From Geodia barretti (taxonomy: Eukaryota): 61,629 nucleotides of DNA. Of this stretch, positions 3,741 to 39,627 are shown in pieces (position 1 is the first letter of the stretch; each line of letters begins with the position of its first letter). A model generated the notes under the pieces. It worked only from the letters and a program-made list of their open reading frames with translations. It was not told where the DNA came from and ran no database searches. A program made the position numbers and the translations under genes. Where the stretch lies: assembly GCA_030341885.1 (NCBI GenBank), contig CASHTH010001844.1, positions 1 to 61,629 of the forward strand, written 5' to 3'.

Positions 3741-4059
3741 GTAAATTTTGTCTGAATCAGGTAAAGATTGGATGAGTCAGGTAACCTTTTGGCCCCTGCA
3801 CTGTTGTGTAGTACCGACGATCAAAGCCATTTTTCTCCCAAGAAAGTTTTAGACTCTTGGCTTTTGGTATAATATACAGATGATATTATTTTGGCCTCGT
3901 ATGTTATTATGTAGTACCAACAAACAAACTCACACTCATATTTTTTTCTCCCGAGAAAGTTTTAGACTCTTCGCGTTTCGTACACATAATATTATTTTGG
4001 CCTTGTACACATTATGTAGTACCAAGAGAATGTAGCAACCAAAGCTTCAACTCTTGTTG

Positions 4060-8828: not shown

Positions 8829-9105
8829 GTGAGACAATCAACTCTATATACTTACAATTTCACTTCAACATCCTACCTTACCTTTACAAGCAATCCTTAT
8901 GTTGTCAAGGTTCAAAACAAGCCTAGCTGTAATATAAAGTCCGTTTGCCGAATTACACCATGAAAAGTGATTGTGCTACTTGCAATTTTACTCACTGAAA
9001 GTATATAATTAAGCGGGATTCACTTTATAAATGCACTAGTAGATACTACTAGTAGATGTATATACCGAGTATGGTGTTACAGATGACTGTATGTGCATGT
9101 GTTAG

Positions 9106-9186
9106 ATGTTGCACCAGTTGACAGCCAGAGCCATCATCAGGGACTGGACCGACGGCTGTCTGAGTCGTGACAAGATGGAGCACGAG
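9106..9186 (+). CDS. VWA5A-like exon
   Basis: gtgttag| acceptor and GAG|gtgacc donor. Translates MLHQLTARAIIRDWTDGCLSRDKMEHE, matching TIHRLAAKSLLQTKDMG. Confidence 0.6.
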
Positions 9187-9195
9187 GTGACCTAC

Positions 9196-9420
9196 CTCTT
9201 CTTTCTTTACTTCCTCTCCCTTTCCTCCATCGTTCACCTTCTCTCCCTTCTCTCCCTTCTTTCTTTAATTCCTCTCCCTTTCCTCCATCGTTCACCTTCT
9301 CTCCCTTCTCTCCCTTCTTTCTTTACTTCCTCTCCCTTTCCTCCATCGTTCACCTTCTCTCCCTTCTCTCCCTTCTTCTTTACTCTCTCTCCCTTTCCTC
9401 CATTGTTCACCTTCTCTCTC
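9196..9420. repeat. ~56-bp tandem repeat x4
   Basis: cttctttctttacttcctctccctttcctccatcgttcaccttctctcccttctctc reiterated directly after exon 9106-9186. Confidence 0.8.
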
Positions 9421-9635
9421 TCCTTTTACCAAGGCTTTACTGTTTCCCTTTAGAACTGATATATTTGCATCAATGGACTCCATTTTGTTTGCCAATGTAC
9501 ATTTAGTTATCAGTGCATGCATTTGTATATTTTAACCTGCCTTTTCGTCACTAAAGGCTTTGGAGTACATGTTCACTATCATTTGAAAATAAATTTTCTG
9601 TGCATAATTCACTTCTCTTGTTGAAAACATCTCAG

Positions 9636-9737
9636 ATTGTGAAGAAAGAGAGAAAATCGTTCATTATCAACATCTCTAAAGACTATTCCATCGTCTCTCA
9701 GTTTACCAGTTTCGTTGCCATCGAAGAGAGAGAAAGG
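9636..9737 (+). CDS. VWA5A-like exon
   Basis: tctcag| acceptor and AGG|gtgagg donor. Translates IVKKERKSFIINISKDYSIVSQFTSFVAIEERER, matching LNLSLESGVISSFTAFIAINKELN. Confidence 0.65.
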
Positions 9738-9798
9738 GTGAGGTCGTTACGAGGTGGGGTTTCCCCCATTTGACCACCCTATGTTGCTATGGATACAG

Positions 9799-9915
9799 GA
9801 TGAGGTGTTTGACCAAAGGAACGGCCCCGCTATCAGTGACCTGGTTGCCAAGGAGACGGTGGACAAGTTGGCGTACATGGGTTGGGATTTGGATGAGTCA
9901 GCAGATCCTGTCAAG
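9799..9915 (+). CDS. VWA5A-like exon
   Basis: atacag| acceptor and AAG|gtgggc donor. Translates DEVFDQRNGPAISDLVAKETVDKLAYMGWDLDESADPVK. Confidence 0.55.
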
Positions 9916-12466: not shown

Positions 12467-12589
12467 GTACATACATACGTATACCTCTCTCTCTGTTCCT
12501 AGCGTGTGAATGAGTTTTAGCGTGGCCTATACTTTTAGCAGGGAAAAGACTGGCCAAGCAATACCTAGACTATAGCTTTTCGTACTTTT

Positions 12590-13150
12590 AGCAAGCAAGT
12601 GGGGTGAAGGACAGGCCAACAAACCATTCTGAATATCTTGACTTTAGCTGGAGTGTGCTGTGGAAATAGGGTGGCCTAAACTGTTCGTACTTTTAGCAAG
12701 CAAGTGGGGTGAAGGACAGGCCAACAAACAATTCTGAATACCTTGACTATAGCTGGAGTGTGCTGTGGAAATAGGGTGGCCTAACCTTTCGTTAGCAAGT
12801 GGGGTGAAGGACACCCAAGAAACCATTCTGAATACCTTGACTATAGCTGGAGTGTGCTGTGGAAATAGGGTGGCCTAACCTTTCGTACTTCTAGCAAGTG
12901 GGGTGAAGGACACCCAAGAAACCATTCTGAATACCTTGACTATAGCTGGAGTGTGCTGTGGAAATAGGGTGGCCTAAACTGTTCGTACTTTTAGCAAGCC
13001 AGTGGGGTGAAGGACAGCCCAACAAACCATTCTGAATACCTTGTCTATAGCTGGAGTGTGCTGTGGAAGTAATATGGTGGCCTAAACCTTTTGTACTCTT
13101 AGCAAACAAGTGGGGTGAAGGACACCCAAGAAACCATTCTGAATACCTTG
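12590..13150. repeat. ~115-bp tandem repeat x5 (intronic)
   Basis: The unit caagtggggtgaaggacaggccaacaaaccattctgaataccttgactatagctggagtgtgctgtggaaatagggtggcctaaactgttcgtacttttagcaag repeats with variants. Confidence 0.9.
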
Positions 13151-13213
13151 ACTATAGCTGGAGTGTGCTGTGCTAATAATTCTCCTTCTCCTTCCCCTTC
13201 CTCCCTCCACCAG

Positions 13214-13556
13214 GGAGTGATGGTAGGCATGGGTCAGAAGGACAGCTACGTGGGAGATGAAGCACAGAGCAAACGAGGCATCCTCACAATGTCCAGTCCA
13301 TTCCAGAGAACGTCTCGGGCTCGGGCTCCGACTGGGGGTCCGCCTCGAGCTCGGGCTTGGGATGGGGGTCTGAGGCGGTCTCGGGCTCTGGCTACAGGGG
13401 CTCTGAGTGGTCTTCCGAGTCGGGTTCCGAGTTTTTCTGCGTCTGAGAGCGCTCCGCAAGTGTCGGCAAAAGAAGGGTTTCGTCATGAACTTGAGATGCA
13501 GGAAGAAATCTCGAGGCCTATGAGAGAGCTGGAAAAGGCCAAAGAAAAGTTGACAG
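13214..13556 (+). CDS. actin-N-terminus-like gene exon 3: actin homology ends after ~26 aa, then unrelated Ser/Arg/Pro-rich and coiled-coil sequence
   Basis: ccaccag| acceptor. Translates [25 protein letters not shown], which is actin residues ~55-79. It then continues [14 protein letters not shown]...[25 protein letters not shown] to donor CAG|gtgaca. The 3' extent is uncertain. Confidence 0.45.
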
Positions 13557-14148
13557 GTGACATGCAGTACTATGTGCTTTGCCAACAGATCTCAAGTCTG
13601 TGTGTCAGTAATGTATTATTACCAGTCAGGCTTAATGTGCACACACCAGTAACACCATGCATGCTTGCGAAAGTTTTTATCTATAAACAAGTGTAATGTT
13701 ATAAGGACGCTTGCTTTGGCCAAATTGTAGTACATACGTACGTAAGTAATGTCTTCTCTTCCCCCAGCTAGGTCAGATTACTACCTTAGGCATGTGGTAA
13801 GGGATTTTATTCCAAAAATATAAGATGCCTTGTGATAAAATCCGTGGGAGCAAACTTCCAAAATTTGGGTAAATGACCAAAATCTTGTGTTTATACATAC
13901 AGTATATACCAGCATACTGCAGTGTGTTGATGCAGTATTATTTCTACATACAGCGATAAGGAAATCAAGGTCACAACGAGAGGCCAAAGCAGATGCCGAT
14001 GTGGAGAAAGATGGAAAATTCGTTGGTATGACGTACTATATAATTACATTACGCTACATTATGTACGCATTAGAGAGTAATAATATTTTGCTATCTTGGG
14101 GCAGTGTTAAGTGAAGTTCAGTGCTAAATATGTTGCAAGGCTAGCAAC

Positions 14149-16270
14149 ATGATGCATGCGGCAGGCCACGCAAGCCATTTCTATCCTCCCTCTACATGGT
14201 GGTGCATGATGCATGCGGCAGGCCACGCAAGCCATTTCTATCCTCCCTCTACATGGTGGTGGGACATGGTGCGGTGCGGCAGGCCACGCAAGCCATTTCT
14301 ATCCTCCCTCTACATTGTGGTGTGGCACGGTGCATGCGGCAGGCCACGCAAGCCATTTCTATCCTCCCTCTACATGGTGGTGCATGGTGCATGCGGCAGG
14401 CCACGCAAGCCATTTCTATCCTTCCTCTACATGGTGGTGTGGCACGGTGCATGCGGCAGGCCACGCAAGCCATTTCTATCCTCCCTCTACATGGTGGTGC
14501 ATGATGCATGCGGCAGGGCACGCAAGCCATTTCTATCCTCCCTCTACATGGTGGTGCATGATGCATGCGGCAGGCCACGCAAGCCATTTCTCTCCTCCCT
14601 CTACATGGTGGTGCACGGTGCATGCGGCAGGCCACGCAAGCCATTTCTATCCTCCCTCTACATGGTGGTGCATGGTGCATGCGGCAGGCCACGCAAGCCA
14701 TTTCTATCCTCCCTCTACATGGTGGTGCACGGTGCATGCGGCAGGCCACGCAAGCCATTTCTCTCCTCCCTCTACATGGTGGTGCACGGTGCATGCGGCA
14801 GGCCACGCAAGCCATTTCTATCCTCCCTCTACATGGTGGTGCATGGTGCATGCGGCAGGCCACGCAAGCCATTTCTATCCTCCCTCTACATGGTGGTGTG
14901 GCACGGTGCATGCGGCAGGCCACGCAAGCCATTTCTATCCTCCCTCTACATGGTGGTGCATGATGCATGCGGCAGGCCACGCAAGCCATTTCTATCCTCC
15001 CTCTACATGGTGGTGCATGATGCATGCGGCAGGCCACGCAAGCCATTTCTATCCTCCCTCTACATGGTGTTGTGGCACGGTGCATGCAGGCAGCAGCCAT
15101 TTATCTCCCTCTACAGGTGGTGGCCGTGCATGGGCAGCACGCAAGCCATTTCTATCCTCCCTCTACATGGTGGTGTGGCACGGTGCATGCGGCAGGCCAC
15201 GCAAGCCATTTCTATCCTCCCTCTACATGGTGGTGCATGATGCATGCGGCAGGCCACGCAAGCCATTTCTCTCCTCCCTCTACATGGTGGTGCATGGTGC
15301 ATGCGGCAGGCCACGCAAGCCATTTCTATCCTCCCTCTACATGGTGGTGCACGGTGCATGCGGCAGGCCACGCAAGCCATTTCTATCCTCCCTCTACATG
15401 GTGGTGCACGGTGCATGCGGCAGGCCACGCAAGCCATTTCTATCCTCCCTCTACATGGTGGTGCACGGTGCATGCGGCAGGCCACGCAAGCCATTTCTAT
15501 CCTCCCTCTACATGGTGGTGCACGGTGCATGCGGCAGGCCACGCAAGCCATTTCTATCCTCCCTCTACATGGTGGTGTGGCACGGTACATGCGGCAGGCC
15601 ACGCAAGCCATTTCTATCCTCCCTCTACATGGTGGTGTGGCACGGTGCATGCGGCAGGCCACGCAAGCCATTTCTATCCTCCCTCTACATGGTGGTGCAT
15701 GATGCATGCGGCAGGCCACGCAAGCCATTTCTATCCTCCCTCTACATGGTGGTGTGGCATGGTGCATGCGGCAGGCCACGCAAGCCATTTCTATCCTCCC
15801 TCTACATGGTGGTGCATGGTGCATGCGGCAGGCCACGCAAGCCATTTCTATCCTCCCTCTTCATGGTGGTGCATGGTGCATGCGGCAGGCCACGCAAGCC
15901 ATTTCTATCCTCCCTCTACATGGTGGTGCATGGTGCATGCGGCAGGCCACGCAAGCCATTTCTATCCTCCCTCTACATGGTGGTGTGGCATGGTGCATGC
16001 GGCAGGCCACGCAAGCCATTTCTATCCTCCCTCTACATGGTGGTGCATGGTGCATGCGGCAGGCCACGCAAGCCATTTCTATCCTCCCTCTACATGGTGG
16101 TGCATGGTGCATGCGGCAGGCCACGCAAGCCATTTCTATCCTCCCTCTACATGGTGGTGCATGGTGCATGCGGCAGGCCACGCAAGGATGCAAGCCATTT
16201 CTATCCTCCCTCGGCATGGTGGTGCATGGTGCAGTGCGGCACGGTGCACATTAGTGCAATATGTTGAACC
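14149..16270. repeat. 2.1-kb minisatellite, 57-bp unit with 63-bp variants, ~35 copies
   Basis: The unit catgcggcaggccacgcaagccatttctatcctccctctacatggtggtgcatg(g/a)tg repeats. The unit length is a multiple of 3, so every frame on both strands stays open. This creates the 684-, 420-, 363- and 283-aa ORFs in the track. Confidence 0.95.
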
Positions 16271-16404
16271 CAGCTTTCAACACTGATCATATGGCATGAC
16301 TTGTCATTTTACATGTTTCTTTCAAATCCCAAACTTGATTATTTGTATCTCAACAGAATCGCGACAGAGTCGCACCCCCCGAATATATGATTTTAGCTGT
16401 GCTA

Positions 16405-17762
16405 TGGGGAAACCTTCTCCACTGCCTCCCACCAAAGCTGTTCCACCAAGTGCGCCCACCCGACTATCCTCAGAGCTCCGTTCTATTGAAAAACCTCTTC
16501 CACCTCCTCCCCCTGAAGAAGAAGAAGAAGAGTTGTATGACTTAGCGCTCCCTTCTTCCCCTACACCAGCCAGAAACGAGGGGTATCTACTCTCATCCTT
16601 GTCTGATGTGACGGCTACAGCAGAACCTGCAACCAACAGTGGGTATATACGGTCTAAAGTGAGGGCTATACGGTTGCATGGTCGACCACGTGGCGTAGTG
16701 AGAGCAGCTGGGAAAGTTCACTCCCGATCTGGTATACCTACCGATGTGCCGGTCGGAGCCAGTCTCAACCTCTCTACAATAGAAATTGATGCGAAGAGCC
16801 TAACTTCTCCAGAGGTGGATAAATTAGTAGCAGAGGACGATCTTTTCGGAGACACCGAAATGTATTCTGCAATCTCAGCATCAGACGCTGCTGCCCCATT
16901 GCCACCTCCGGGAAGGAGGGCATTCCGTTCTCCAGTTCGAGGTCCTCCACCTGGACCCAGTGTCGTTTCTATGAGTCTCAGGATGCCATCTCTGACAAGG
17001 AGGAGATCCCCTCAAGTTCGATGTCCTCCACCTGGACCCAGTGTCGATTCTATGAGTTTCAGGATGCCACCTACTGCAGCAGCTGGTGGTCCCCCACCCC
17101 CACCCCCTGATCTCATTTGTTATGATGCCCCACGCCCACTTTATTCCGCTGCATTTGGTTATGGTGGCATACCCCCACCCCCTCCAACACGTGGTGGTCC
17201 CCCACCCCCACCCCCTCCAACATTCGGTGGACCCCCACCCCCTAGAGCACCGATGCCTGCGTCTGCACCTCCACCCCCTCCACTGCCCGGTGGTGCACCG
17301 CCCCAACCCCCTGAGGCACCAAAAATTGCACCTGGTGGTCCCCCACCCCCGGCCCCACCTCGTCAGTTGTTTCGAGGCATCATGCGTGCACGAGGCAAAT
17401 GTTCTTCTCTCAAGAAAATAGAAACTTCCGATGATGAAGAGCCCCGACTATCAAGCATGCCTTTCGTTAGGGGGCCAAGGCGACAGCCTGTCAGCGACAA
17501 GACTACAGGACGCTCTTCTTTTCTCGCCAAGGCGTTGAAGGAAAAAGTTGCTGCAGCCCCCTCTCCCCCTCTCCCTCCTCCTCCTCCTTCTTCCTCTGCT
17601 ACATTGGCAAGCAAGAAGTTTGCTCCTCCTGTTGCTCCACGTTGTTTTGGTACCAGAAACTTGCCAGAACCTCAGCCAGCACCGGGAGGAGGAGGTGGAG
17701 GAAGGGGCGGTTTGCTGTCCTCTATCAAGTCTGGAGTGAAACTGCAGGCAAGCAAGTGGTAG
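16405..17762 (+). CDS. proline-rich WH2-domain protein (WASP/WAVE-family-like nucleation-promoting factor), main exon
   Basis: Open frame from MGKPSPLPP... with several poly-Pro tracts (GGPPPPPPPTFGGPPPP, APPPPPLPGGAPPQPP) that look like profilin/SH3-binding FH1-type motifs. It ends GGGGGRGGLLSSIKSGVKLQASKW* = WH2 motif (LLxxIxxGxxL[KQ]). A GC-AG splice after ...VKLQ (~17747) would join the downstream connector and acidic exons in frame. Confidence 0.55.
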
Positions 17763-21499: not shown

Positions 21500-21951
21500 A
21501 ACTGACATTTTTATCAGTAGCATAGAGCAAACAGGGACTGAATTTTTAAGCAACACTTTGCATGTGATGTTGTTCGTACGTAGATTTTTTGCTTGCTGCA
21601 TTTTTACACTGTACGGCCCCAACGGCACACGATTGTGCGCATGCGCCAACAATTATTTTGCTGGCGGGGGAGGTTCCCTTGGGTGTTGCGCTCGAGCCCT
21701 GACGTTTTTGCTACAAGACGCCGTAGGAGAGAGAGATCAGGGTCGAGCTGAGAGGCACGGGACTCGCAAGTGTGTAAGGTAAGGGCTGGTATTCACGGCG
21801 GTCGGTTCTGTCAGAACCTTTTGCAATTGGCGAGAGCCTGTCACCAGTAAACCAAAACTTTCCGGGCTTGTTTGGTCTGACAGACCAACAGAACAAGCGC
21901 AGAGTAATTTTTGATTTATCTAATATATTATACAGCCTTTGAAAGTCGGCC

Positions 21952-22024
21952 ATGGAAGCAGAGAAACAAAAAGGTGATGAGGCGTATCTCAAGGTTGGAG
22001 AGATCATCACTGATGATGTCACAG
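21952..22024 (+). CDS. SH3-PTB-Roc/COR-death-domain gene, exon 1 (start)
   Basis: ATG at 21952. Translates MEAEKQKGDEAYLKVGEIITDDVT, then donor G|gtattg (phase 1). Confidence 0.45.
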
Positions 22025-22214
22025 GTATTGTCATGCATGACAGAGAGATAATTATGCGTTACGATCACCTCATGAATTGCAGGAAGATGTTTGCTGTGTA
22101 TGTTCTGTTTGTCTGAGTTGGTCTGTCCCATTATTTACACTCCCCCTATATCTCCCAACTTATGTGAGTGGCTAAAAGAAAGTAAAGGTGTAAATATTAT
22201 ACTGCATGTTTCAG

Positions 22215-22307
22215 TGGCAGCAAGGAGCTGGCAGGTGGACCCCACAACCCTTGCCACACCCTCAGAGCAAGCTCCCAGTGAATTGACTGTGGTTACCGAG
22301 GAAGCAG
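22215..22307 (+). CDS. exon 2 of the same gene
   Basis: gtttcag| acceptor and G|gtatct donor. Translates (V)AARSWQVDPTTLATPSEQAPSELTVVTEEA. Phases match on both sides. Confidence 0.45.
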
Positions 22308-22372
22308 GTATCTCTCTCTGTGTCCCCCTCCCTCTCACTCTCTCACATTGTCTCTCTCGTGCCTGGACTCAG

Positions 22373-22458
22373 GTGAAGTGGACAAGGTCAGAAGAGCCAA
22401 GGTGTTGTACAGATTTGAGGCAGAGGACCCAGGTGATCTAACACTGGAACCGGGACAG
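22373..22458 (+). CDS. exon 3: N-terminal half of the SH3 domain
   Basis: gactcag| acceptor and CAG|gtgaga donor. Translates GEVDKVRRAKVLYRFEAEDPGDLTLEPGQ, with the SH3 ALYDFEA...EL.F..GD signature. Confidence 0.65.
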
Positions 22459-22745
22459 GTGAGAGCAGTAGTTCATTTCCTAATACTCTCCTTACATGTG
22501 CCATCAACCGTAATCTTGTATACTTCGACCGCACTTTGCCTGTTAGCATACAGTGGAGGCATCTGATGTTACAACAGAGGGCGAATAAGTCCTGCTATCC
22601 CTAAAATGCTACACTATCTACTAGTCCAGCTAGCCCATGTCAGACTCTCAGAAAGCTAGAGAGACCCCACAGCCCAGATCATCGATTAACACCTCAGACC
22701 CAAACTAGATGGCTGGGTTAACTATTATGCTTTCTCTCTCTGCAG

Positions 22746-22926
22746 ATAGTTGATGTGTTGTGGGATAAAGATGACAGCAGGTGGAGAGGCCGAATTGGAG
22801 AAACTGAAGGCTTTATCCCTGCCAGCTATGTGGAAGTCCTCAACGATGAAACTGCATCTTCTAACTCCACTGACCAACCAGCCATTCAGCCTAAGGATCC
22901 TTCAAGAGCAGGCGACTTTAGTGCTG
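22746..22926 (+). CDS. exon 4: C-terminal half of the SH3 domain plus linker
   Basis: ctctgcag| acceptor and G|gtaaga donor. Translates IVDVLWDKDDSRWRGRIGETEGFIPASYVEVLNDETASS... Confidence 0.65.
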
Positions 22927-23839
22927 GTAAGATTTGCAGAAACTCATGCTTCTGCATAAGGAACTTTGTGGTTTTTTTTTCCTGAGTGGTCCCTCTCTTG
23001 GGAGGCCCCTCCTATCATTACAGACCAGAAGCCTTTTGCATGGCTGCACTTCCCATACAAACTTACATACTTCAGCCAGAGACCACCTCAAGAACACAAC
23101 CACTGACTGTCAACCTGCGCGCACATCGCACAGGGCGGAAGAGGGTCTGGTGATATTTGCGTGGTTTCGTGACGACCGGATAGTGCATTTTTCAAGCCAC
23201 ACACACTGAGTTTGGTAGCTAAGGTATATACCCCAAAGATGCCCTCCAAGAGTCCATTAAGAACTTGACATTTATTGATCATCGATACTGTTTATACAAA
23301 GGTCTCTGGTGTTGGAGTGGTTCTTGTGATAGTCTGCTTGTTTCTAATTCTTGGTAATGGCAGTGAAGTGGACAGGCCGGGATGGGCACCAGGCCATGTC
23401 ATCTATCTTCCTTCTCTCAGCACAGCTTACTCTACATACTTCAGTGAACATAGGAATGTACGGAATGTGCCTTTCATCATGTACTATGAAAGCTCGTCCC
23501 ACCCTACTACCCCTCTGCTGCATGTGGGTGTCAACAAATATGTTTGCATTGCTAGTGCACCAGGGATTTACGCTTCAGCGCTTGTCATTTGGTATGGATT
23601 TACACCCTGTCATTCATGGATTCAGATGTGTGCGTAAGTAAGTATTCTAGAATGGTCACATACCACCTACATACAAGGGTTTGCCCTTTCATTAGAAAAA
23701 GGCTATTAATCTGGCGTGTGCACATGCATGCAAAGCCATTTGTACCGCTTTGTGGCATGCATATTGTGTGTGGAAGCATTTTTAGCATATCCTCTTTTTT
23801 TCTTCCCCCCCCCCTCTATATTCCCCTTAAAACAAATAG

Positions 23840-26233
23840 GGGTACCTGCCTATGCTATAACAAGCATGGGCAACAACATTGGATCCTGCCTCATACAATT
23901 CACTGATACAGCACTCACGGTCAAGTTCTTACACACCAATGTCACTTTCTCCTGGCCGTACAATATCATCCGCAAGTTTAAAGTATATAATTACTTTTCC
24001 TTTGTCTCTGGTCGCCGAGGGCCGTACGGAGTTGCAGAGTACAATTTTGTCATGACAGAGAAGGCACTGGTATTAGTAAAACACACCCTCACTCAGATTA
24101 CTTCTACTGACTTTCCAAATGATGAGGTTTCTAGTGAAGGAACTACGGTAGGTGAGCAAGACTTTATAGAATTGCTTAAAGATGAGTCAAGAGTATTCTT
24201 TGAAGAAGCCATGAAGCAGGGCTATGTGAATGTTACACTAGTGAAAGTGATTGTGGAGGGACCTGCAGGTGTCGGCAAAACCTCAGTCGTTTACCTTCTC
24301 CTTGGTAAACCGCCTCCAAAAGATAGACACAGTACTGGCTGCGCTGAGCGAGCAATTCGAGTGATACGCTTGGGTAAGGAGGGAGAAGAGTGGAATGAAA
24401 TCACCACAGAAGAATTTGAGAAGATGATTTCAGAAGCAGTTCCTGTTCACCTTAAAGCAAAGGAAGAAGGAATGAAGAAGTTATTGGAGGCATTGGAAAA
24501 ACATTTTGAGGAAAGCGAGGAGGAAGATGAGGAATTGAATGGAGATACTTGTGAAGAAAACAAGGAAGAGGAAAGTAGTGCCCACGATACTGACGCAGTC
24601 ATTGATGAAGTAATCAAGAAGCTAACTCGACTGGTGGGTGGTGGGAAATCGTCACATCGTCTCCAGGACATGGAGTTGATCTACCTAACCGACACAGGTG
24701 GCCAGCAACCGTTTTGGGACCTCATCCCGATATTCGCATCCGACACGTCAGCCACCCTCTTTGTCCACCGGGTCTGCGAAAAGCTTGACGAACACCCCCT
24801 CAACGACCTCTACCAGACAGGTAAGCGGGTTGGTCCTAGCCAGCGAGCCACACTCACTACTGCCGAGGCCTTTAAAGCAATGCTTCGAGGCCTGCACGAA
24901 GGGGAAGGAAAGTCCTCCAAGATGATTGCCGTCGGAACGCACCGGGATTTAGCAGATGATTGCGAAGAGACACTGGAAGAAAAGAACAAGAAGTTTGCTG
25001 CAATAGCGTCGCCTCACTTTGAGAAAGATGTCGTTTTCAGAAATGATGCCATGCAGGAGATAATTTTCCCAGTCAATGCGAAAACTCCAGACGACGAGAA
25101 AGAGGCGCGTAAAATCAGAGCCAGCATTGAACAGGGAGCCACACAACACAAGATTCCGATATGGTGGTTCATCCTCCAGATGATCCTGGAAGCACTAGCT
25201 CACAAGCTCGGAAGAGATGTTCTAAGCAAAGACGAATGCGTCCGCATTTCAGACACGCTGGGGTTCGTGGAGGGAGAACTGGATGCTGCACTCGCCTTCT
25301 TTGACAAGCTCAACATTTTCCTCTACAAGAAGAGCATTCTTCCCAGAGTTGTGTTCACCAATCCGCAAGTCCCCATGGGCAACCTCTCAAGGCTCGTGAA
25401 GAAGCAGTACCACCTGAAAGCTGCAGAGGCCGATCCAACAAAAGCTACATGTGTGGCAATAAGCGGTCAGTGGAAAAACTTCCGCGACTGTGGAATCCTC
25501 ACTCCCGAATGTCTCAATGAATTCAAGGCTGACTATGTAGATGGGATCTTTAATCCTACGGATTTTCTGACATTGCTCGAAAACCTCCTTGTCATCTCCC
25601 AATTGTCCGCGAATGAGTACTTCTTTCCGGCAATTCTCAGCATGACCACTGAAACCAAGATTAACGCGTGCCTCATGTCATCCAGAACAACCAAGATAGC
25701 TCCTCTGGTGGTGGAGTTCCCCACCGGCTGGGCTCCTCCCGGTGTCTACTGCTGCAGTGTGTGCCACCTTCAGTCCCACTCTGGCTGGAAAGTGGTGAAG
25801 AAACCGCCCATCAAGCCACGCAGCAGGAGTTCAAATGCACCCCCCGCACAGCACCACTCAATTTCTCGCAACTGTATTGAATTCACCAAAGTTGGCAGGC
25901 CTGGTTCAGTGACACTCGTCGATAACTTTTCTTCGTTTGCGGTGTGTGTTAACATAGACACCAGCAAGATGGAGCGAGAGGATTTAGCTCAGCATTGCCA
26001 GGCCATCAAGACCGAGATCTTTGCCGCAGTCGATGCAGCCCTGGAGAACACCCACCACAAAGACACCCACCCAACCTCTGCTTTCCTCTGTCCCAGACAG
26101 GAGGACGCCTCTTGCAGCACTAAACTGCACGTTGCACACCTCTCCAGTAATGGGAAGCAGTGGATATGCTCTGCCAACAGTGGAGTATTCGACTATCTCA
26201 CTCCTGACCAGACATTGTGGCTCAGTGGAACAG
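23840..26233 (+). CDS. exon 5 (~800 aa): IRS-type PTB domain, then P-loop GTPase (Roc-like), then COR-like region
   Basis: The acceptor aaatag|GG fits the phase-1 donor of the SH3 exon. PTB evidence: GSCLIQFTDTALTVKF...FSWPYNIIRKFK...FSFVSGRRGPYGVAEYNFVMTEKALVLVKHTL, against Dok/IRS PTB FSWPYRLLRRYG..FSFEAGRRC.SGEG.F.F. GTPase motifs: G1 GPAGVGKTS, G3 DTGGQ, G4-like VGTHRD, G5-like VNAKT. COR-like: IPIWWFILQMILEALAHKLGRDVLSKDECVRISDTLGF. Donor G|gtgcgt. Confidence 0.65.
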
Positions 26234-26294
26234 GTGCGTTATTAGCATGATGATGGATTCGTCATAATAATATTATTCTTTGCTTTTCTCATAG

Positions 26295-26590
26295 AACCTG
26301 TTGTTCATTCAAAGACTTCACATCCTAAACTCAGTGATCTGGCAAATCGCGTCGCAGCTATCATTCCCCACAAGTGGAAGGAAGTTGCTATTCAACTGGA
26401 TCTCAGCAAAGGTGAGAGGAAGGCCATAGAGAGTGACGAAGACAAATCCTTTGATCGATTTGTTGCCGTTCTCGAACAATGGAGGCAATCAGCCATTGTG
26501 CCCTACACTTGGAAGACAATTGTCAATGTCTTAAAGTCAGCATCTGTTGATGAGACAAGGTTGGCAGAGGAACTGGAGAAAAACTTTTGC
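26295..26590 (+). CDS. exon 6: death domain (terminal)
   Basis: ctcatag| acceptor in phase. Translates EPVVHSKTSHPKLSDLANRVAAIIPHKWKEVAIQLDLSKGERKAIESDEDKSFDRFVAVLEQWRQSAIVPYTWKTIVNVLKSASVDETRLAEELEKNFC*. This has the death-domain six-helix signature (W..LA..LG...I..I......R.VL..W). Confidence 0.65.
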
Positions 26591-26711
26591 TAGATCCGTT
26601 TTTGCACTACAGAAACTACCAATTTTGCACATGCGTGCAAAGTTAACCCGCGAGGGACGCGGATCCCTCGCGAGTAGTTTGCGCAGCATCACACAACAAC
26701 AAAGACAGAGA

Positions 26712-29162
26712 ATGCAGCAGCTCATATCCCGGTTGCTCTCGCCGCCTGGACGACGTTTCCTGTACAGCAATGGGAGGGAGAGGGAGCCGGAGCCGTCAGA
26801 ATCCGACCACCCTCTCGTGGGGGAGCAGATTTCCTTCACTCGAGCCCCGAGCATTACACCGCGGGAAGATGGCCGGTGCCTGGCCGTCTTTACGAGCGGT
26901 GGGGACGCCCAGGGAATGAACTCGGCGCTCAGAGCGGTCGTGAGGATGGCCATCTTCAGCGGAGTCCGCGTCTTTGCCGTGCGAGAAGGCTACAAGGGGT
27001 TGGTGGAGGGAGGGAAGCACATCGAGGAGTTCCGGTGGGCGTCCGTCTCGAACATTCTTCACAAGGGCGGCACAGTCGTCGGCACGGCTCGCTGTAAGGA
27101 GTTCAGAGAGCGGGAAGGTCGCCTCAAAGCCGCGGAGAACCTAGTGCAGCGCGGGATCAACAACCTAGTAGTGATTGGCGGAGACGGAAGCCTTACAGGC
27201 GCCAATCTCTTCAAGAAGGAGTGGGAGGGTCTGCTGGCTGAGCTGGAGGAGGCCGGACGCCTCACCAGAAGCCAAGTCGAAAAGTGCAAGTACTTGAACA
27301 TCGTGGGGCTAGTGGGGTCCATCGACAACGACATGTGTGGGACGGACATGACTATCGGCACCGATTCAGCTCTCCACCGCATCATCGAGGCCGTTGACTG
27401 CCTAACTAGCACTGCCGCCAGCCACCAGAGGAGCTTTGTACTGGAGGTAATGGGCCGTCACTGTGGGTACCTCGCACTGATGGCTGGGATTGCTGGCTGT
27501 GCGGACGCCGTGTTCATCCCCGAACGCCCTCCTAACCCAGGATGGGAGGACAGCATGTGCTACCAGATCGCCCAATGCCGAGATGCAGGGCGAAGACACA
27601 GTCTCGTTATCGTCTCCGAAGGGGCAGTGGATTCAGAAAACAGGCCGATAACTTCGGAGCAGATCCGGGACATCCTGCAGGCAAAGTTGGGCCACGACAC
27701 GAGGATAACTGTCCTCGGCCACGTTCAGAGAGGGGGGAAGCCGTCGGCGTACGATCGCATCATCAGCGCGCGAATGGGTGCAGCTGCAGTCATCACCCTC
27801 CTGAACGCGGAAGGAGAGATCCCTCCAAAGATGATCGGTGTTCAGGGCAACGTGATCATGCAGCTCCCGCTCATGGACTGCGTGACGAAGACGCGGGCCA
27901 TAGATACTGCGATGAAGACGTGCGAGTTCAAGCAGGCCCTCGAGCTGCGCGGAAGGTCATTCAAACGAAACATGGAACTCTTGCGACGCCTCGAATCCTG
28001 TCGAAACCCCGAGTGCGGAAGCGAAGAAGACATTCTCTCCCCAACGCCCGTCCGCAGATTCAAATTTGCAATCATGAACGTCGGTGCGCCGGCAGCAGGG
28101 ATGAACAGCTGCAACCGAGCCTGCATCCGTCTCCTGCTGTACAAGGGACACACGGTGCTGGGGGTGGGCAACGGGTTCTCGGGTCTTTTGGACGATGACA
28201 TCACCGAAATGTCGTGGGATTCGGTGACGAATTGGGCCGCCGAGGGCGGGTCTAACCTGGGAACAAACAGGATTAAGCCTACTGCCCACACGCTGCCAGA
28301 GATTGCTGCGAAATTTGGGGAGCACCATATCGAGGGGCTTCTGATCGTTGGAGGCTTCGAGGCGTATCACAGTCTCATAATCCTGGAGGAGAACAGAAAA
28401 CTCTACACGGCTTTCCGCATTCCTCTCCTCGGGGTGGCAGCCACCATCAGCAACAACGTCCCCGGTACGGAATACAGTCTCGGTTGCGACACTGCCCTCA
28501 ACACAATCGTCAGTTCTTGCGACATCCTCCGTCAATCGGCACAGGGCAACCGCAAACGTGTTTTCGTCGTCGAGACGATGGGCGGTTACTGTGGCTACCT
28601 CGCAACCATGGCAGCTCTCGCAGGAGGCGCCGACGCAGCGTACATCTTCGAAGAGAAGTTTACCATCTCAGACATCCAGAGGGACGCCGATTACCTCGTC
28701 GGGAAATTCAAAGACGGCCTCGAACGTGGTCTACTCTTGCGAAACGAAAAGTGCAACGAGAATTTCACCACAACATTTATCACTGAGCTCCTATCGGAAC
28801 AGGGTAAAGGTGTTTTCATCTGCCGCGACAGCCTTCTCGGGCACCTACAGCAGGGAGATGCACCAACTCCCTACGATCGTATCCTCGGAGTCCAGTACGC
28901 TGCCCACACCGTCGATTTCCTGCAGAAACACGCTCAGGAGAATCTGAATTCGCGGGATAAAGTCCGTGCCGAGAATGCCGAATCGGCCTGCATGATCGGG
29001 CTCCAGGGAACGAAATTCCAGGCAATTCCGCTGCAGAAACTGGCAAAGGATACGGATTTCGAGCACAGGATCCCCACGCACCAGTGGTGGATGAGCCTGC
29101 GTCCACTCATCGCGATATTCGCCAAGCACAAGGAGCACGATTTCCGTGGAGAGACCCGCTAG
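26712..29162 (+). CDS. PFK: ATP-dependent 6-phosphofructokinase (eukaryotic tandem-duplicated ~800-aa type), intronless
   Basis: Single uninterrupted ORF. The ORF track starts it at 26547, but that overlaps the upstream gene's terminal exon. The first ATG after that gene's stop is 26712 (MQQLISRLL...). Both PFK halves are present: LAVFTSGGDAQGMNSALRAVVR, GGDGSLTGA, GSIDNDMCGTDMTIG, HQRSFVLEVMGRHCGYLA in the N-half, and IMNVGAPAAGMN, VGGFEAYHS, ETMGGYCGYLATM in the C-half. Confidence 0.9.
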   Translation: MQQLISRLLSPPGRRFLYSNGREREPEPSESDHPLVGEQISFTRAPSITPREDGRCLAVFTSGGDAQGMNSALRAVVRMAIFSGVRVFAVREGYKGLVEGGKHIEEFRWASVSNILHKGGTVVGTARCKEFREREGRLKAAENLVQRGINNLVVIGGDGSLTGANLFKKEWEGLLAELEEAGRLTRSQVEKCKYLNIVGLVGSIDNDMCGTDMTIGTDSALHRIIEAVDCLTSTAASHQRSFVLEVMGRHCGYLALMAGIAGCADAVFIPERPPNPGWEDSMCYQIAQCRDAGRRHSLVIVSEGAVDSENRPITSEQIRDILQAKLGHDTRITVLGHVQRGGKPSAYDRIISARMGAAAVITLLNAEGEIPPKMIGVQGNVIMQLPLMDCVTKTRAIDTAMKTCEFKQALELRGRSFKRNMELLRRLESCRNPECGSEEDILSPTPVRRFKFAIMNVGAPAAGMNSCNRACIRLLLYKGHTVLGVGNGFSGLLDDDITEMSWDSVTNWAAEGGSNLGTNRIKPTAHTLPEIAAKFGEHHIEGLLIVGGFEAYHSLIILEENRKLYTAFRIPLLGVAATISNNVPGTEYSLGCDTALNTIVSSCDILRQSAQGNRKRVFVVETMGGYCGYLATMAALAGGADAAYIFEEKFTISDIQRDADYLVGKFKDGLERGLLLRNEKCNENFTTTFITELLSEQGKGVFICRDSLLGHLQQGDAPTPYDRILGVQYAAHTVDFLQKHAQENLNSRDKVRAENAESACMIGLQGTKFQAIPLQKLAKDTDFEHRIPTHQWWMSLRPLIAIFAKHKEHDFRGETR

Positions 29163-29760: not shown

Positions 29761-32262
29761 CTAAAAGTCGGAGGTAGACTGGTTGTTGATTGACCTCAGA
29801 TGTTGCTCGCCAAGAAAGACGTGGTTTCGGTCCCGCGCCAACACGTGCAGCAGAGCACGAAGCGACATCCACCACTGCTGCTTGGGCATCCGGTGAGCGA
29901 AATCCGTCTCCTCGATGAGGTCTTGGATTGGAGTGGTCACCATGCTGGTTCCCCTGATCCCCACCATACATGCAGACTGTGGGTCCATTGCCCGACTTAT
30001 CCCCCCTCCCCCACCACCTGTGCGCAGAAGCTTTTCCATTTGCTCCATGAAAAAATCGACGGCGTGTGCAGCATATTTCGTTCCGAGGATTCTGTCGTAC
30101 GGACTAGGCTTGTCGCCTTGCTGGAGGTGACCTAGAATGTTGGATTCGGTCACAAACATTCCTCTACCTTCTTCGGCCAGTAGCTGGCACATGAACTCGC
30201 TCGTGAAGTTGACGCTGCAGCGTTCGCTGCGTGTTATGATTCCCCGCTGTATGCCGTCCGCTTTAAATTTCCCCACGAGTCTAGCAACATCTTTGTGCAT
30301 GTCAGAGATTGTGAAGTTGTCCTCGAAGATGTATGCAGTGTCCGCCCCTGCTGCCAAACCAGCCATGGTGGCGAGGTAACCGCAGTAACCGCCCATTGTC
30401 TGGACAACAAACACTCGCTTGCGGCTGGCGTTGGCCGACTGGCGCAAAACGTCGCACATGGAGACGATAGTGTTGAGCGCCGTATCACTCCCCAGGCTGC
30501 AGTCGGTCCCGGGAACGTTGTTGCTGACTGTGGCTGCAATCCCGAGCAGAGGAATCTGGAAGGCTGGGTACTCACTCCGACGTTTCTGGAGTGTCACGAG
30601 ACTCTCGAATCCGTCAAACCCACCGACAATCAACAGGCCCTGGATCCCGTGTTTGGTAACCTTTTCGGCAATGGTCGGGAGCGTCTCTTCATTCGGCGAC
30701 GTACGGTTTGTACCGAGGAAAGATCCACCGGCCGAAGCCCACTCGGACACGTCATGCCACTCCATCTCTCTCACCCTGTCAAGGAGTAATCCCTCGAAGC
30801 CTTCCTCGATACCCAGGACGGTGTGCCCACTGTAGGTCATGAGACGAACGAAGGCTCGAACGGTGCTGTTCATTCCTGCCGCTGGACTCCCTACATTCAT
30901 GATGGCCACACGATACGAGTTCCCAGACTCATTTAGCGAGGGGTTGGACCCGCAGCCTCGAGGACCGCATGAAGAAATACGGCGCGAGACCGTGATGTTC
31001 CGGAGGAAACTGCTCCCTCGCAGAGCCTGTGCTCGTTTAAAGTTGCACTCTTGCATCGCTCGATTGACATTCCTCGTGGCTTCCACGCACTCCATGAGGG
31101 GAATCCGGCAAATGTAGTTGCCCTGTACGCCGATCATCGTGGGGGGAATTTCGCCAGTAGCCTGAAGGAGGACAAGTACAGCCGCAGCACCCATCCTGCA
31201 TGCGATGAGTCGATCGTACGCGGACGGTTTTCCTCCTCGCTGGACGTGACCGAGCACAGTGATCCTCGTATCGTGACCGAGCTTCGTTTCGATCACCTTC
31301 TTCACGTACTGGGAAGTGATTGGCTTGTTCTCCTTGTCCACCGCCCCCTCCGAGACAATCACGATGCTCAATCTCTCCCCGAGACCACAACACGTCTGCA
31401 TTTTCTGACACATGACGTCTTCCCATCCTGGCTCGGGAGGCTTTTCGGGGATAAGGACCCAGTCTGCACGACCGGCAATTGCCGCCATTTGTGCGAGGTA
31501 CCCACAGTGACGGCCCATTACCTCCAGTACAAAGCTCCTCTGGTGGCTGGCGGCGGTGCTAGTTAGGCAGTCAACGGCCTCGATGATGCGGTGGAGAGCT
31601 GAATCGGTGCCGATAGTCATGTCAGTTCCACACATATCGTTGTCAATGGACCCCACAAGCCCAACAATGTTGAGAAACCTGCACTTTGCTGCTTCCTCTG
31701 CAGTGATTCGCTGCTCTTGCTGCAATTCAGCTAGAAGCCCCATCCATTCCTCCTTGAAAACGCTGGCTCCGGTCAGACTGCCGTCGCCTCCAATGACCAC
31801 CAGGTTCCCTATGCTCCTTTTGACGAGATTGGAGGCTGCTCGTAGCCTGCCTTCCCGTTCGCGGAAATCCCGGCATCTCGCGGTGCCGATGGCCGTCCCG
31901 CCTTTGTGGAGGATGTTGGAGACGCTGTTCCAGCTGCACTCCTCCATCCCCTTCTCCCCGCCGTCCACGAGGCCCTGGTAGCCTTCGTGCACGGCGTACA
32001 CACGCATCCCGCGGTGGAGGGACAGGCGAACAATGGCTCGCAAAGCCGAGTTCATACCCTGGGAGTCTCCCCCGCTCGTCAGCACAGCCACGCTCTTTCC
32101 CACCCCGTCCACCGCCATGTCCACGTCCTCTGACAGCGCCGTTCCGAAGGAGAGTCGTACGGCCTTCGTCTGATGCGCCATGTCCTCGGGGCTCAGCAAT
32201 GACGTCTGCGGCTCCTTCTCCGACGGTAGGCGCGTCCTTTTCCGCAGGGGTAGAACTTCCAT
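29761..32262 (-). CDS. PFK: ATP-dependent 6-phosphofructokinase paralog, intronless, convergent with the first
   Basis: 833-aa ORF, MEVLPLRKRTRLP...VAVLTSGGDSQGMNSALRAIVR...IMNVGSPAAGMN...QTMGGYCGYLATMAGL. It runs tail to tail with the + copy; the two stop codons are ~600 bp apart. Confidence 0.9.
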   Translation of the reverse strand: MEVLPLRKRTRLPSEKEPQTSLLSPEDMAHQTKAVRLSFGTALSEDVDMAVDGVGKSVAVLTSGGDSQGMNSALRAIVRLSLHRGMRVYAVHEGYQGLVDGGEKGMEECSWNSVSNILHKGGTAIGTARCRDFREREGRLRAASNLVKRSIGNLVVIGGDGSLTGASVFKEEWMGLLAELQQEQRITAEEAAKCRFLNIVGLVGSIDNDMCGTDMTIGTDSALHRIIEAVDCLTSTAASHQRSFVLEVMGRHCGYLAQMAAIAGRADWVLIPEKPPEPGWEDVMCQKMQTCCGLGERLSIVIVSEGAVDKENKPITSQYVKKVIETKLGHDTRITVLGHVQRGGKPSAYDRLIACRMGAAAVLVLLQATGEIPPTMIGVQGNYICRIPLMECVEATRNVNRAMQECNFKRAQALRGSSFLRNITVSRRISSCGPRGCGSNPSLNESGNSYRVAIMNVGSPAAGMNSTVRAFVRLMTYSGHTVLGIEEGFEGLLLDRVREMEWHDVSEWASAGGSFLGTNRTSPNEETLPTIAEKVTKHGIQGLLIVGGFDGFESLVTLQKRRSEYPAFQIPLLGIAATVSNNVPGTDCSLGSDTALNTIVSMCDVLRQSANASRKRVFVVQTMGGYCGYLATMAGLAAGADTAYIFEDNFTISDMHKDVARLVGKFKADGIQRGIITRSERCSVNFTSEFMCQLLAEEGRGMFVTESNILGHLQQGDKPSPYDRILGTKYAAHAVDFFMEQMEKLLRTGGGGGGISRAMDPQSACMVGIRGTSMVTTPIQDLIEETDFAHRMPKQQWWMSLRALLHVLARDRNHVFLGEQHLRSINNQSTSDF

Positions 32263-36680: not shown

Positions 36681-37872
36681 ACAGACAAGTCACACATCAC
36701 ATACATATACAGACAAGCAAAAATCTTGGCCGCCCAGATTGAACTCCTGACTCTTTCACGCCATTAATGTGTATATAGACCCTTCAATTGAGCAGGCTTC
36801 CAGGCTCCAGCTACTAATGTTCACTGATATAGTGTAGGGTTCAAGACTGAATAGGTTTGCACTAACAAGAGATTGGATGTACTTGGCAAGAAGGCACAGA
36901 AGAAAAGAAACAATATTATTAACCTTAGCATAAGACATGTGCAGTCTCACACAACTTAACTGGCTAGTGAAGTTAGTCTACCTAGTCGTCTAGATGTTCT
37001 ATCATGTTTTGCCACCCTTACTGTAATGTCCTACATAATTCTAAACACGTGTAGGTAAGTTTTGCTACTCACGATGCAGCCAGAACACTCGCATGCACCA
37101 GAGAATCTAGCACTGCAGCTTCCACATAGTATAGTAGCATTGTACCAGTTGGGCTTCACTTTACAGTCCACATGATCAGTGGTGAAGGCTGTTATTTCAG
37201 CCCAGTCTATAGTAGACATGTGACCAATTACATGACATCACAGGCTTCAGTGTTCACCGCAATGCTTGTATGTAGGTGGGCCAATTCAAAACCTGTTTCA
37301 CAAACAGGATAAACTGATCTTCTTCAGGGTATTCAGGAATTGTGTGCGCATATGCAGAATCCAAATATGGGTATTGAGGGTGGATGCATGATGTATATGT
37401 ATGTATGTTTCCATGATTACTTTCCAATAGCAAGAGACGGTATTTGGCATGCAATTACACTGCGATCGCCCACATGTATGTTCCTAGAGCTATGCCATAG
37501 TGAGTGGATACATGTACAGCGATTCACAGAACTAGAGTGCCTACTATAACACACATAGGCACAGTACATTATACCTTAGTTTGATGCTGACCATACAATT
37601 ATGGGTTAATCGTCATGGGCACACCCTCTCTAATTAAGGCACCCTAAAATGAAGGGAGTTTGATGAATGTATATACAAGCTTCCACATGCAAAGTTTTCT
37701 AGGCCTGCTAGGAATGAACCCTGGGAACTTGCAGTAAGGTTTACAAACACATGCTTTAGCATTAATTACTCAATCTCCACTCTCTCTTCTCTTTCCCTCA
37801 CCAGCCACAAGCATATTCACACACACACACAGTCACCAGTACACTCTCTCTCTCTCTCTCTCCCGCACAAAC

Positions 37873-38697
37873 CTCGGCCTGGACATGTTTCATCAGCGTC
37901 ATCTGTCTCTCTTGAATGATCTCGCGGATCTCCGAAAACTTCTGCTGGATCTGATTCTTTGTTTGCTCCACGGTCGGTCCCAGCTCGGCGTTGTTTGCCG
38001 ATATACTCCCCAGTGCCACGTTCAACTTGGCCAGAATCCCCTGGCTGTACTTGACCATCCGCTTAGCCTGAGAGCGCAACGTCTGAACGGCGTCGTTAAT
38101 TGGCTCAAACTGGTCCCTCATATCGGCAAACTCGGGCCGCGAAGACTCGCACTCGCTGCAGGCAAACTGCTGAAATTTGATGGAGTAGAGCGTCGCCAGG
38201 ATTCGCGGGTGGTACAAGCAGTAGGCAGCGTGCGGATTGTTTACCTCGGTCATGAGCATGCGTCGATGTCGCGTGACGGGCTCAAACCCACGATTGTGCT
38301 CCGTCTTGATACACATGCTGCAAAACAGGGTGTTGTTCTTGGTCGGGTTGCAATCGAAGCAGACCCACGTCGCCCCCTCCTCACAGTGCAGCCCCTTGTA
38401 CTCACACTGCGGACCGACGACTTTGGTATCGACCCGTTTAGAGTCGCTGATCTTAATAATTTCGAGCACCGCGTGGTTTACCGGTATGAGTTTCGGGTCG
38501 GGCCTTGACAGCTCGTGGAGGGAGCTACAGAAGGCGCACTTGACCCCATAGCGTTTCCCGGCATGAATACTGACGAGTTGCGCGAGGCATTTGGTGCAGT
38601 AGGTGTGTCCACATCGCAAGACACGAGGCGTGGTGTCGTACTCGGTTCCGTACTGCTCGTTGCATATGGGGCACTCCAAAACCTGTACATATACATA
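37873..38697 (-). CDS. TRIM-like gene paralog 1, exon with RING, B-box and coiled-coil (start codon probably in an upstream 5' exon)
   Basis: The minus-strand ORF 37798..38700 starts at a TTG alternative start. Any true ATG lies upstream, likely across an acceptor tgtacag|GTT at ~38697. RING: CPICNEQYG...RVLRCGHTYCTKCL...CAFCSS. B-box: GPQCEYKGLHCEEGATWVCFDCN...CSMCIKTEHNRGF. Coiled coil runs to ...MTLMKHVQAE, then donor |gtttgt at 37872. Confidence 0.7.
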
Positions 38698-39627
38698 CAA
38701 TGGAGTGGTATACAGAGAAGCATGGGAGTCAACAGTTAGACATGTGCAGGGTCATTGAGACTCATTTATTCATCCCTAGCTGAAATAATTGGTCAGTGTT
38801 CACAAGTACAAAACTCTAGGGGGCATTGGCATATACACACAAACATTCACACTGGGCCCAGCCCAGTATAAAAATCACACAGGGCAGAAAAGAACCGGTT
38901 CACCAGAGCGTATGACACGACTCACAGAACGAGGGAGGCGGTCTACTACACGCGGGCAAGCGGAACCTCGTGCTCCGCTTGCTGAGGTAGCTAGCTACAT
39001 ACACAGTTATCCCTGCCTACATCTTACCCCCACACGAACTACGGTTACCAGACAGTCATCACAAACTCACAGAGGGCGTCGCAAGCACGTCCTGCTGCTC
39101 TGGGTTGGCCATCTCGTTAGCGGCCGCCGTCTTCGTCGTAGGAAGCAACACTCTTGCTGGCGACGACACGCACGCGTACACACGGATGCAGAGACCTTAG
39201 GAACGGCGTGGGTCATCCAAAGAGCTACTGTGTGGCTGGTGCGTGTGAACTTTCGCCTTGAAAATGAAGCGCACTCTTCTTCGGTTAGGCGGCGGACAGG
39301 CTAATTTTTTCTCCACAAGCGGACTCAAGAAATGAGACGGGTGAACCTCAAATGGTATGCGCATGCGCCTTGGCGTTCCGGTGCGGCCAAGAATGCAGTC
39401 AAGCCGGTTTCTCACGTGCGGATGTCACGCGACAATCGGGCGGCGCCGCGTCGACGCGTCGACGGAATCTACGCATGCTCTAAAACGAGGCGGGTCGTAA
39501 AAATTCAATTCCAGCTCTGCAATAGGTCACAGTACAGAGATAACGGAGCAAAATTCATAGGGAGTGTAATAAATTGTACCACAAATCCTATATAGCTGGA
39601 ATAAAAGGCTGCTAGATGTCTTTTGAT

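Follow-up and report, generated by a model that had tools for sequence, protein, structure and literature searches.

The locus GBAR_LOCUS12377 of the demosponge Geodia barretti lies in a 61,629-nucleotide stretch of genomic DNA (GenBank assembly GCA_030341885.1, contig CASHTH010001844.1, positions 1 to 61,629 of the forward strand; hereafter the window, to which all coordinates refer unless another locus is named). It occupies positions 21952-26593 of the + strand as one protein-coding gene of six exons (21952-22024, 22215-22307, 22373-22458, 22746-22926, 23840-26233 and 26295-26593), which together form a 1041 amino acid (aa) open reading frame (ORF) closed by a TAG stop codon at 26591-26593. 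All six exons have GT-AG borders, and the phases after exons 1 to 5 are 1, 1, 0, 1 and 1. A join of six exons with consistent phases had been proposed in an initial interpretation made without database searches (the sequence-only reading), all the quoted motifs of which can be located in the 1041 aa model. A search of 5.8 billion proteins recovered the deposited product CAI8020738.1 (P0001, 1035 aa, “hypothetical protein GBAR_LOCUS12377”), which is 99% identical to the six-exon model over its full length and differs from it only at the exon 1/2 junction. We consider it probable that this one gene encodes, in linear arrangement, a vestigial half-SH3, an SH3 domain, an FRS2-like phosphotyrosine-binding (PTB) domain, the Roc, COR-A and COR-B domains of a ROCO protein and a death domain (DD), with the docking, switch and death-fold roles proposed below.

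The G. barretti annotation was generated by MAKER from StringTie-assembled RNA-seq and ab initio prediction (PMC10542158), and four isoforms of the gene are deposited, the exon structures of which we rebuilt against the window DNA. Two of them, CAI8020737.1 and CAI8020738.1, carry the SH3 exons joined to the remainder of the gene via 22926/23840, the phase-1 donor and acceptor that the sequence-only reading had paired. CAI8020737.1 (P0336) uses the 22215 acceptor, as in that reading, and is reproduced exactly when an optional 81-nucleotide (nt), phase 1-1 exon at 22083-22163 (+ strand, AG/GT borders), present in this isoform only, is included. The exon 1/2 junction of CAI8020738.1 (...DDVT/QVDP..., window 22022-22233) is not attainable with GT-AG borders, 22215 being the sole canonical acceptor. 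The remaining two isoforms start within intron 4 and skip the SH3 exons, CAI8020736.1 (989 aa) with a first coding exon at 23357-23633 and CAI8020739.1 (904 aa) with one at 23616-23637, and both are reproduced exactly by alternative first coding exons on the + strand within 23357-23637 that use the donors 23633/gtaagt and 23637/gtaagt. The ORF at 23400-23637, thought at first to be unassignable, is in fact part of this annotated alternative start. A Pfam scan finds no domain in the intron-4 ORFs. The SH3-containing product is one of several annotated products, and the alternative first exons probably yield versions of the protein with and without SH3 input.

The SH3 domain (aa64-115) is encoded by exon 3 (22373-22458, first half) and exon 4 (22746-22926), the latter carrying the second half, a Ser/Thr/Pro-rich linker and the phase-1 donor. 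The split SH3 predicted over 22373-22926 is thereby borne out, with scores of 30.3-34.9 bits for SH3_1 (gathering score 22.9) and 31-34.8 bits for SH3_2 (gathering score 21.8), a modelled SH3 fold with predicted local distance difference test (pLDDT) values of 80-88, and TMt values of 0.8-0.88 to solved SH3 domains. Upstream of it, alignment with the orthologous locus of another, related sponge (L002, described below) reveals that exon 1 (21952-22024) carries the start codon and the vestigial first half of an ancestral N-terminal SH3 (SH3#1), in which an 18-nt deletion has removed the first β-strand. The decayed second half of SH3#1 sits in intron 1, directly upstream of exon 2 (22215-22307), which encodes a linker predicted to be disordered (pLDDT ~30). 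The N-terminus at L002 is a true SH3 (49.6 bits), whereas in the G. barretti protein only aa64-115 scores as SH3. Derivation of this N-terminus from an existing SH3-SH3-PTB adaptor gene was considered and found unsupported, as SH3 is absent both from the 10 kb upstream of the exon of a free-standing sponge PTB adaptor (L004) and from the 5.8 kb upstream of the PTB-containing paralog L001. A kinase remnant was sought in intron 4 of the window and none was found.

Exon 5 (23840-26233) is a single exon of 2394 nt that encodes the PTB, a linker, Roc, COR-A and COR-B, so that PTB and Roc-COR share one unbroken exon, and the core shared among homologues ends where this exon ends. The PTB domain (aa147-245, 23845-24141) has a conserved WPYN...FSFxSGRRGPYGVAEY core in which SGRRGPYG occupies aa201-208. 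When submitted alone to a single-sequence Pfam search it scores 19.1 bits against PF02174 (gathering score 22). Twenty-five sponge homologues align to it at 37-51% identity, most of them carrying a precomputed PF02174 match, and the joint profile of homologues matches the FRS2/SNT-1 PTB structure in the PDB (1xr0_B, E=2.3e-6), followed by FRS3 and Dok1/2. The earlier assignment of an IRS/Dok-type PTB is therefore probably right and can be narrowed to an FRS2-like one, and we read the domain, from its sequence relationships, as a true but divergent member of the IRS-type class. The GRR arginines are kept, and we take them to be those that contact phosphotyrosine in Dok1, a possible lead to ligand recognition. 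Compared with the otherwise strongly conserved adaptor family the domain has a 3-aa deletion. That family consists of free-standing sponge FRS2-like docking proteins of about 250-340 aa (P0122-P0145; L004 10001-10897), in which a Pro/Ser-rich tail bearing a conserved PKRDPLP/LPPRDY motif comes after the PTB; as their PTB exon opens at an internal acceptor, an additional upstream exon is implied. No other protein that unites the PTB core motif with a P-loop was found, either among the retrieved proteins or in a junction-spanning search of the 5.8 billion, and the only other case of PTB joined to Roc is L001, known at the DNA level only.

The Roc G domain (aa270-578, 24214-25140) was delimited by profile, Foldseek and motifs, the latter comprising G1 GPAGVGKT (aa285-292, 24259-24282), a G2 Ser-Thr (24328-24339), G3 DTGGQ (aa429-433, 24691-24705), G4 GTHRD (aa510-514, 24934-24948) and G5 VNAK (25072-25083). 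The G4 sequence VGTHRD, which had been singled out as unusual, is not, as GTHxD is the ROCO norm and aligns with VGTHLD of LRRK2. Directly C-terminal to Roc are COR-A (aa580-730, 25144-25596), beginning at IPIWWF (aa583-588) and placed by the Pfam family scan and Foldseek, and COR-B (aa731-942, 25597-26232), placed by Foldseek and alignment, with an FPxGxxxxGV motif and invariant C895, H908, C921 and W938. Between β2 and β3 of Roc lies a helical, strongly acidic insertion of ~90 aa (aa333-420, 24403-24666). This is a family-specific feature that differs widely in length and composition among paralogs, reaching ~250 aa in P0094 and being Gly/Glu-rich in P0002, and it may be reflected in Foldseek matches to G-alpha proteins.

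The central region gives only weak and mixed single-sequence Pfam matches (Guanylate_kin, Dynamin_N, AAA_16 and Roc, the last at 14.9 bits against a threshold of 27). When built from close paralogs (A1, at least 56% identity), a profile reached nothing but Rab/Rac P-loops at E ~0.01, and the AlphaFold model built from the same alignment was poor (pLDDT 56, with the G domain below 50). Both the weak profile match and the poor model were remedied by adding diverse homologues, 62 sequences at 27-47% identity taken from an exhaustive representative profile search, and 67 family members were scanned with Pfam. The best PDB match of the resulting profile is the LRRK2 Roc domain (E=1.1e-4), in an alignment that spans the P-loop, switch II and GTHxD. 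Roc (25 of the 67 members) and COR-A (11 of the 67, one above threshold) are the commonest domains matched, an Ephydatia member reaching 39.4 bits for COR-A against a gathering score of 35.3. The AlphaFold model of aa246-943 now has a pLDDT of 87.1 and a predicted template modelling score of 0.88, and its best 19 Foldseek matches in the PDB are all LRRK1, LRRK2, C. tepidum Roco or M. barkeri Roco2 (E 4e-11 to 2e-6, over ~700 columns), the next fold class beginning at E=2.6e-4. The sequence-only reading had named both a P-loop GTPase of Roc type and a COR-like segment; the former, weak on a single sequence, emerges from the family profile and fold search, and the latter from the COR-A matches among family members and the extended RocCOR structural alignments. 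Family alignment and model together indicate that the core is a true ROCO module, a Roc G domain with intact G1-G5 and COR directly C-terminal to it as one tandem unit. As the G motifs are conserved in 66-67 of the 67 diverse members, the proteins of this family look like active GTPases. The same comparison reveals C895, H908 and C921 to be kept in 66-67 of the 67 members, which are only 27-47% identical, with C611 nearly invariant and W938 invariant (C895-C921 region aa893-922, 26083-26172). This conservation suggests that the C-terminal end of COR-B harbours a site that binds metal or is structurally critical in some other way, with C611, C895, H908 and C921 as possible metal ligands.

Exon 6 (26295-26593) encodes the death domain (aa ~955-1041, nt 26330-26590) and the stop codon. 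With the gathering score at 22.6, Pfam gives it a borderline 22.3 bits when the exon is taken by itself and 16.5 bits within the full protein. The gene and its orthologous and paralogous relatives nevertheless provide seven copies, all of which match Pfam Death (PF00531, best E=1.2e-7). The profile of these seven has the FADD death domain as its best match (E=7e-6), followed by PIDD and CRADD. Six helices are modelled over aa955-1040, and the original call of a death domain at the C-terminus is thereby upheld.

Far from standing alone, the gene is part of a Roc-COR(-DD) family that is very large in demosponges. An exhaustive profile search with the core retrieved 2846 clusters (50% identity) at E<=1e-3, of which 683 reach E<=1e-30, with members in Halichondria panicea and Ephydatia muelleri that are annotated as uncharacterised. 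Part of the family is in tandem arrays, and one cluster at 90% identity has at least 15 of its members on a single 1.72-Mb contig. The termini of family members vary, with kinase, coiled-coil, SH3 or PTB modules at the N-terminus and death domain, ZU5 or subtilase at the C-terminus, and modules have been exchanged among paralogs, and even orthologous loci differ in this way. A G. barretti paralog 88% identical in the core has a TAK1-like kinase N-terminus (P0002/P0340) and a death domain in one isoform, and another paralog has a coiled-coil N-terminus. In the paralog L001 a single exon, entered at an equivalent phase-1 acceptor, encodes both the PTB and the core, to give PTB-Roc-COR-DD. Some members end in Peptidase_S8 (subtilase; P0195, P0274) or ZU5 (P0268, P0272) rather than a death domain, so the output module is interchangeable too. 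The description of this gene as a distinct architecture needs qualification, as the family to which it belongs is very large and its ends are interchangeable. The union of PTB and P-loop has no other protein representative in the searches made here, and within their reach the fusion is confined to this gene and one paralog. The literature that we searched contains no description of a sponge Roc-COR family or of a PTB-ROCO fusion. At L001 itself, about seven tandem copies of a unit translating as ESPCTWMEHQRER lie upstream (about 3600-3900), and a long interspersed nuclear element-like sequence with endonuclease and reverse-transcriptase domains lies directly downstream (12572-14322).

The related-sponge locus L002 is a positional ortholog, having the same upstream gene, the same tail-to-tail phosphofructokinase (PFK) pair and the same fn3 gene. 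The two loci share ~81% DNA identity from window position 24185 on, whereas the N-terminal third (window 21503-24184) does not align with L002. That locus encodes an intact CD2AP/CIN85-like SH3, then a complete TKL-type kinase exon (8998-9900), then the Roc-COR exon, and no PTB is found there. The kinase-Roc-COR-DD order at L002 and in the close paralog P0002/P0340 is DAPK1-like, with a kinase of a different class (ZAK/TAK1-like). The kinase noted as missing by the sequence-only reading is indeed absent, with no Pkinase match in the 1041 aa protein, but the absence is lineage-specific, as the syntenic ortholog and the close paralog have a TKL-group kinase before Roc. Synonymous divergence (dS) from L002 is 0.73 for the ROCO core and 0.76 for PFK. 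The core and the death domain have ratios of nonsynonymous to synonymous divergence (dN/dS) of 0.22 and 0.19, respectively, as compared with 0.037 for the neighbouring PFK gene, and these values indicate that the gene is under purifying selection while its nonsynonymous rate is ~6 times that of PFK.

Several observations weigh against a five-domain protein with the proposed role. The PTB, Roc and Death assignments have single-sequence scores below curated thresholds, SH3 being the only domain that single-sequence Pfam and PDB searches confirmed, and these calls therefore rest on family profiles and predicted structure; the sole model that covers the PTB has a pLDDT of 50-65 there. Residues 1 to 56 have the appearance of a relic of evolution. 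With the SH3 exons missing from two of the annotated isoforms, the complete protein of five domains may account for only a minor part of the output, and the lack of conservation of the N-terminal modules at the orthologous locus speaks against a conserved SH3- or PTB-dependent function. Taken further, such observations could mean that annotation has created the five-domain protein as a chimera and that the product really made is PTB-Roc-COR-DD, initiated from intron 4 or at Met155, the SH3 exons being a remnant or a separate short transcript. The intron-4 starts at 23357 and 23616, the decayed SH3 half in exon 1, and the CAI8020738.1 junction that GT-AG borders cannot reproduce all fit this explanation, as do a stop encountered after ~20 codons of read-through at the exon-4 donor and the PTB-Roc-COR-DD paralog L001, with no SH3 detectable in its upstream 5.8 kb. 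Against it, two isoforms from a pipeline that used RNA-seq join 22926 to 23840, donor and acceptor match in phase, and a strong polypyrimidine/AG acceptor precedes exon 5. The paralog and the PTB adaptor family (EFPASA.../EFHANA...) moreover retain the residues before Met155 (VPAY...), indicating that these residues are coding and that an upstream exon is needed. The SH3 domain is intact and scores above threshold, and L002 likewise has an SH3 exon upstream of the same core. On balance we regard a chimera as unlikely.

Still less probable, to the point that we give it little weight, is that the gene has lost its function and is decaying, as a young pseudogene in a large expanding family would. 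The vestigial SH3#1, the 3-aa deletion in the PTB region relative to the conserved adaptor family, and the size and fast turnover of the family would be compatible with decay, but the 1041-codon ORF is unbroken with canonical splice sites, all G motifs and family-invariant residues are intact, and the dN/dS values of core and death domain against the ortholog point to purifying selection. The proposal that the central NTPase is not ROCO at all but GIMAP/AIG1, IRG, dynamin-like or STAND, followed by an unrelated helical region, was tested and rejected, and its likelihood is negligible. The mixed single-sequence Pfam result and the Rab/Rac matches of the close-paralog profile had left room for it. 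With the diverse alignment, however, the top sequence match became the LRRK2 Roc domain, no AIG1, IIGP or NACHT Pfam match is present in the 67 members, in which Roc and COR-A are commonest, and in the fold searches ROCO proteins alone take the top ranks, for the G domain as well as for the COR region of 350 residues. A mitofusin or IniA/dynamin-like fold was likewise discarded, its Foldseek matches (E>=2.6e-4, as against 4e-11 for ROCO) being at least six orders of magnitude weaker.

Short peptide motifs are the docking sites of SH3 domains and of PTB domains of the FRS2 type, and death domains assemble oligomeric signalling complexes. By analogy, in the five-domain ROCO protein that we favour the SH3 and PTB would dock the protein onto proline-rich and NPxY-type/juxtamembrane peptides of upstream partners, possibly receptor tyrosine kinases, and the C-terminal death domain would recruit other death-fold proteins into a cell-death or innate-immune signalling complex. 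Between them the Roc-COR unit would act as a nucleotide-dependent conformational and dimerisation switch, in keeping with the view that ROCO proteins are nucleotide-dependent dimerising switches with ROC-COR as a single unit (PMC4104024). The coupling to phosphotyrosine signalling we infer only from such analogies. If the SH3-PTB fusion is functional, the domain order and model would imply a direct link from adaptor-type docking through a G-domain switch to death-fold assembly.

The closest familiar design is that of the metazoan ROCO protein DAPK1, and the resemblance to it remarked on by the sequence-only reading is apt as regards the Roc-COR-DD domain order. DAPK1 shares with this gene the Roc-COR tandem followed by a C-terminal death domain and intact GTPase motifs, and with the ortholog L002 and the close paralog a kinase N-terminal to Roc. 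It differs in having a calmodulin-regulated CAMK-type kinase and ankyrin repeats where the sponge protein has SH3 and an FRS2-like PTB; the 1041 aa protein has no Ank match in Pfam, and the kinases of its relatives belong to the TKL group and are ZAK/TAK1-like. The sponge gene further has the ~90-aa Roc insertion and belongs to a family of thousands, DAPK1 being single copy. Without the CAMK-type kinase and ankyrin repeats, the gene is not a DAPK1 ortholog. It differs from LRRK1, LRRK2 and the prokaryotic Roco proteins of C. tepidum and M. barkeri as well, with only 11-16% sequence identity, no leucine-rich repeat (LRR), ankyrin, armadillo or WD40 domains, no kinase C-terminal to COR, and a death domain at its end. 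The PTB appears to be of the same IRS-like class as those of FRS2/FRS3 (SNT) and Dok, its FSFxSGRR core aligning with FRS2. In FRS2 and Dok, however, a disordered tail carrying phosphotyrosine sites comes after the PTB, the layout of the free-standing sponge adaptors, whereas here Roc-COR-DD takes the place of that tail.

Multiplication of ROCO genes in an early-branching animal has a precedent in Trichoplax adhaerens, which has at least 17 genes in which the domains around ROC-COR include death, CARD, SH3 and TIR (Civiero et al. 2014, PMC4104024). Given that ROCO proteins with death-fold and SH3 domains were thus already reported, the design is known and the sponge gene is a variant of it. 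The two expansions share a multi-gene ROCO set and this design principle, but they belong to different phyla, that of Trichoplax is far smaller (at least 17 genes as compared with thousands of clusters), and no PTB fusion has been reported in it. Exon-shuffled ROCO repertoires in brown algae have been proposed as immune receptors (PMC11378527), and the AP-GTPase/COR module has been discussed as a conflict-system switch (PMC8195603). The sponge family resembles the brown-algal ROCO and NLR/STAND receptors in being made up of clustered, fast-diversifying NTPase-switch genes that trade modules through exon shuffling. The brown-algal proteins differ in their LRR sensors, no repeat-type sensor domain having been found in this gene, and the NLRs, which also have death-fold outputs, differ in using a STAND ATPase rather than a Ras-like GTPase.

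ROCO proteins such as LRRK2 and DAPK1 are medically important and their ancestral roles are unclear. Sponges belong to the animal groups that branched off earliest, and NLR expansions are already known in them. From the sequence surveys, the DAPK1-type Roc-COR-death-domain design appears to have been multiplied to thousands in sponges, partly in tandem arrays, and by comparison with known systems the family looks like cell-death or immune signalling machinery, its size, clustering, rate of change and module swapping being of the kind that may be expected of immune or self/non-self recognition repertoires. We tentatively suggest, as a possibility well short of probable, that the demosponge Roc-COR repertoire is an NLR-like system of intracellular immune or allorecognition receptors with shuffled N-terminal inputs and C-terminal outputs, in which this particular gene wires tyrosine-kinase/adaptor docking into death-fold signalling. 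Such a system would add a GTPase-based counterpart to the sponge NLR expansions.

Downstream of the ROCO gene are two full-length PFK genes, arranged tail to tail at 26547-29162 (+ strand) and 29761-32262 (- strand), each with an unbroken ORF and a Pfam PFK score of ~629 bits. The start codon of the first (~26712) is only ~118 nt past the ROCO stop codon, a distance of ~125 nt at L002, and at such proximity the PFK promoter or 5' untranslated region must overlap the 3' end of the ROCO gene. Elsewhere in the window (14213-17762, + strand, and 37801-38700, - strand) neighbouring genes include two long ORFs (684 and 488 aa) with fragmentary zf-C2H2_15/FBD and WH2 matches, and a 300-aa ORF that contains a RING finger.

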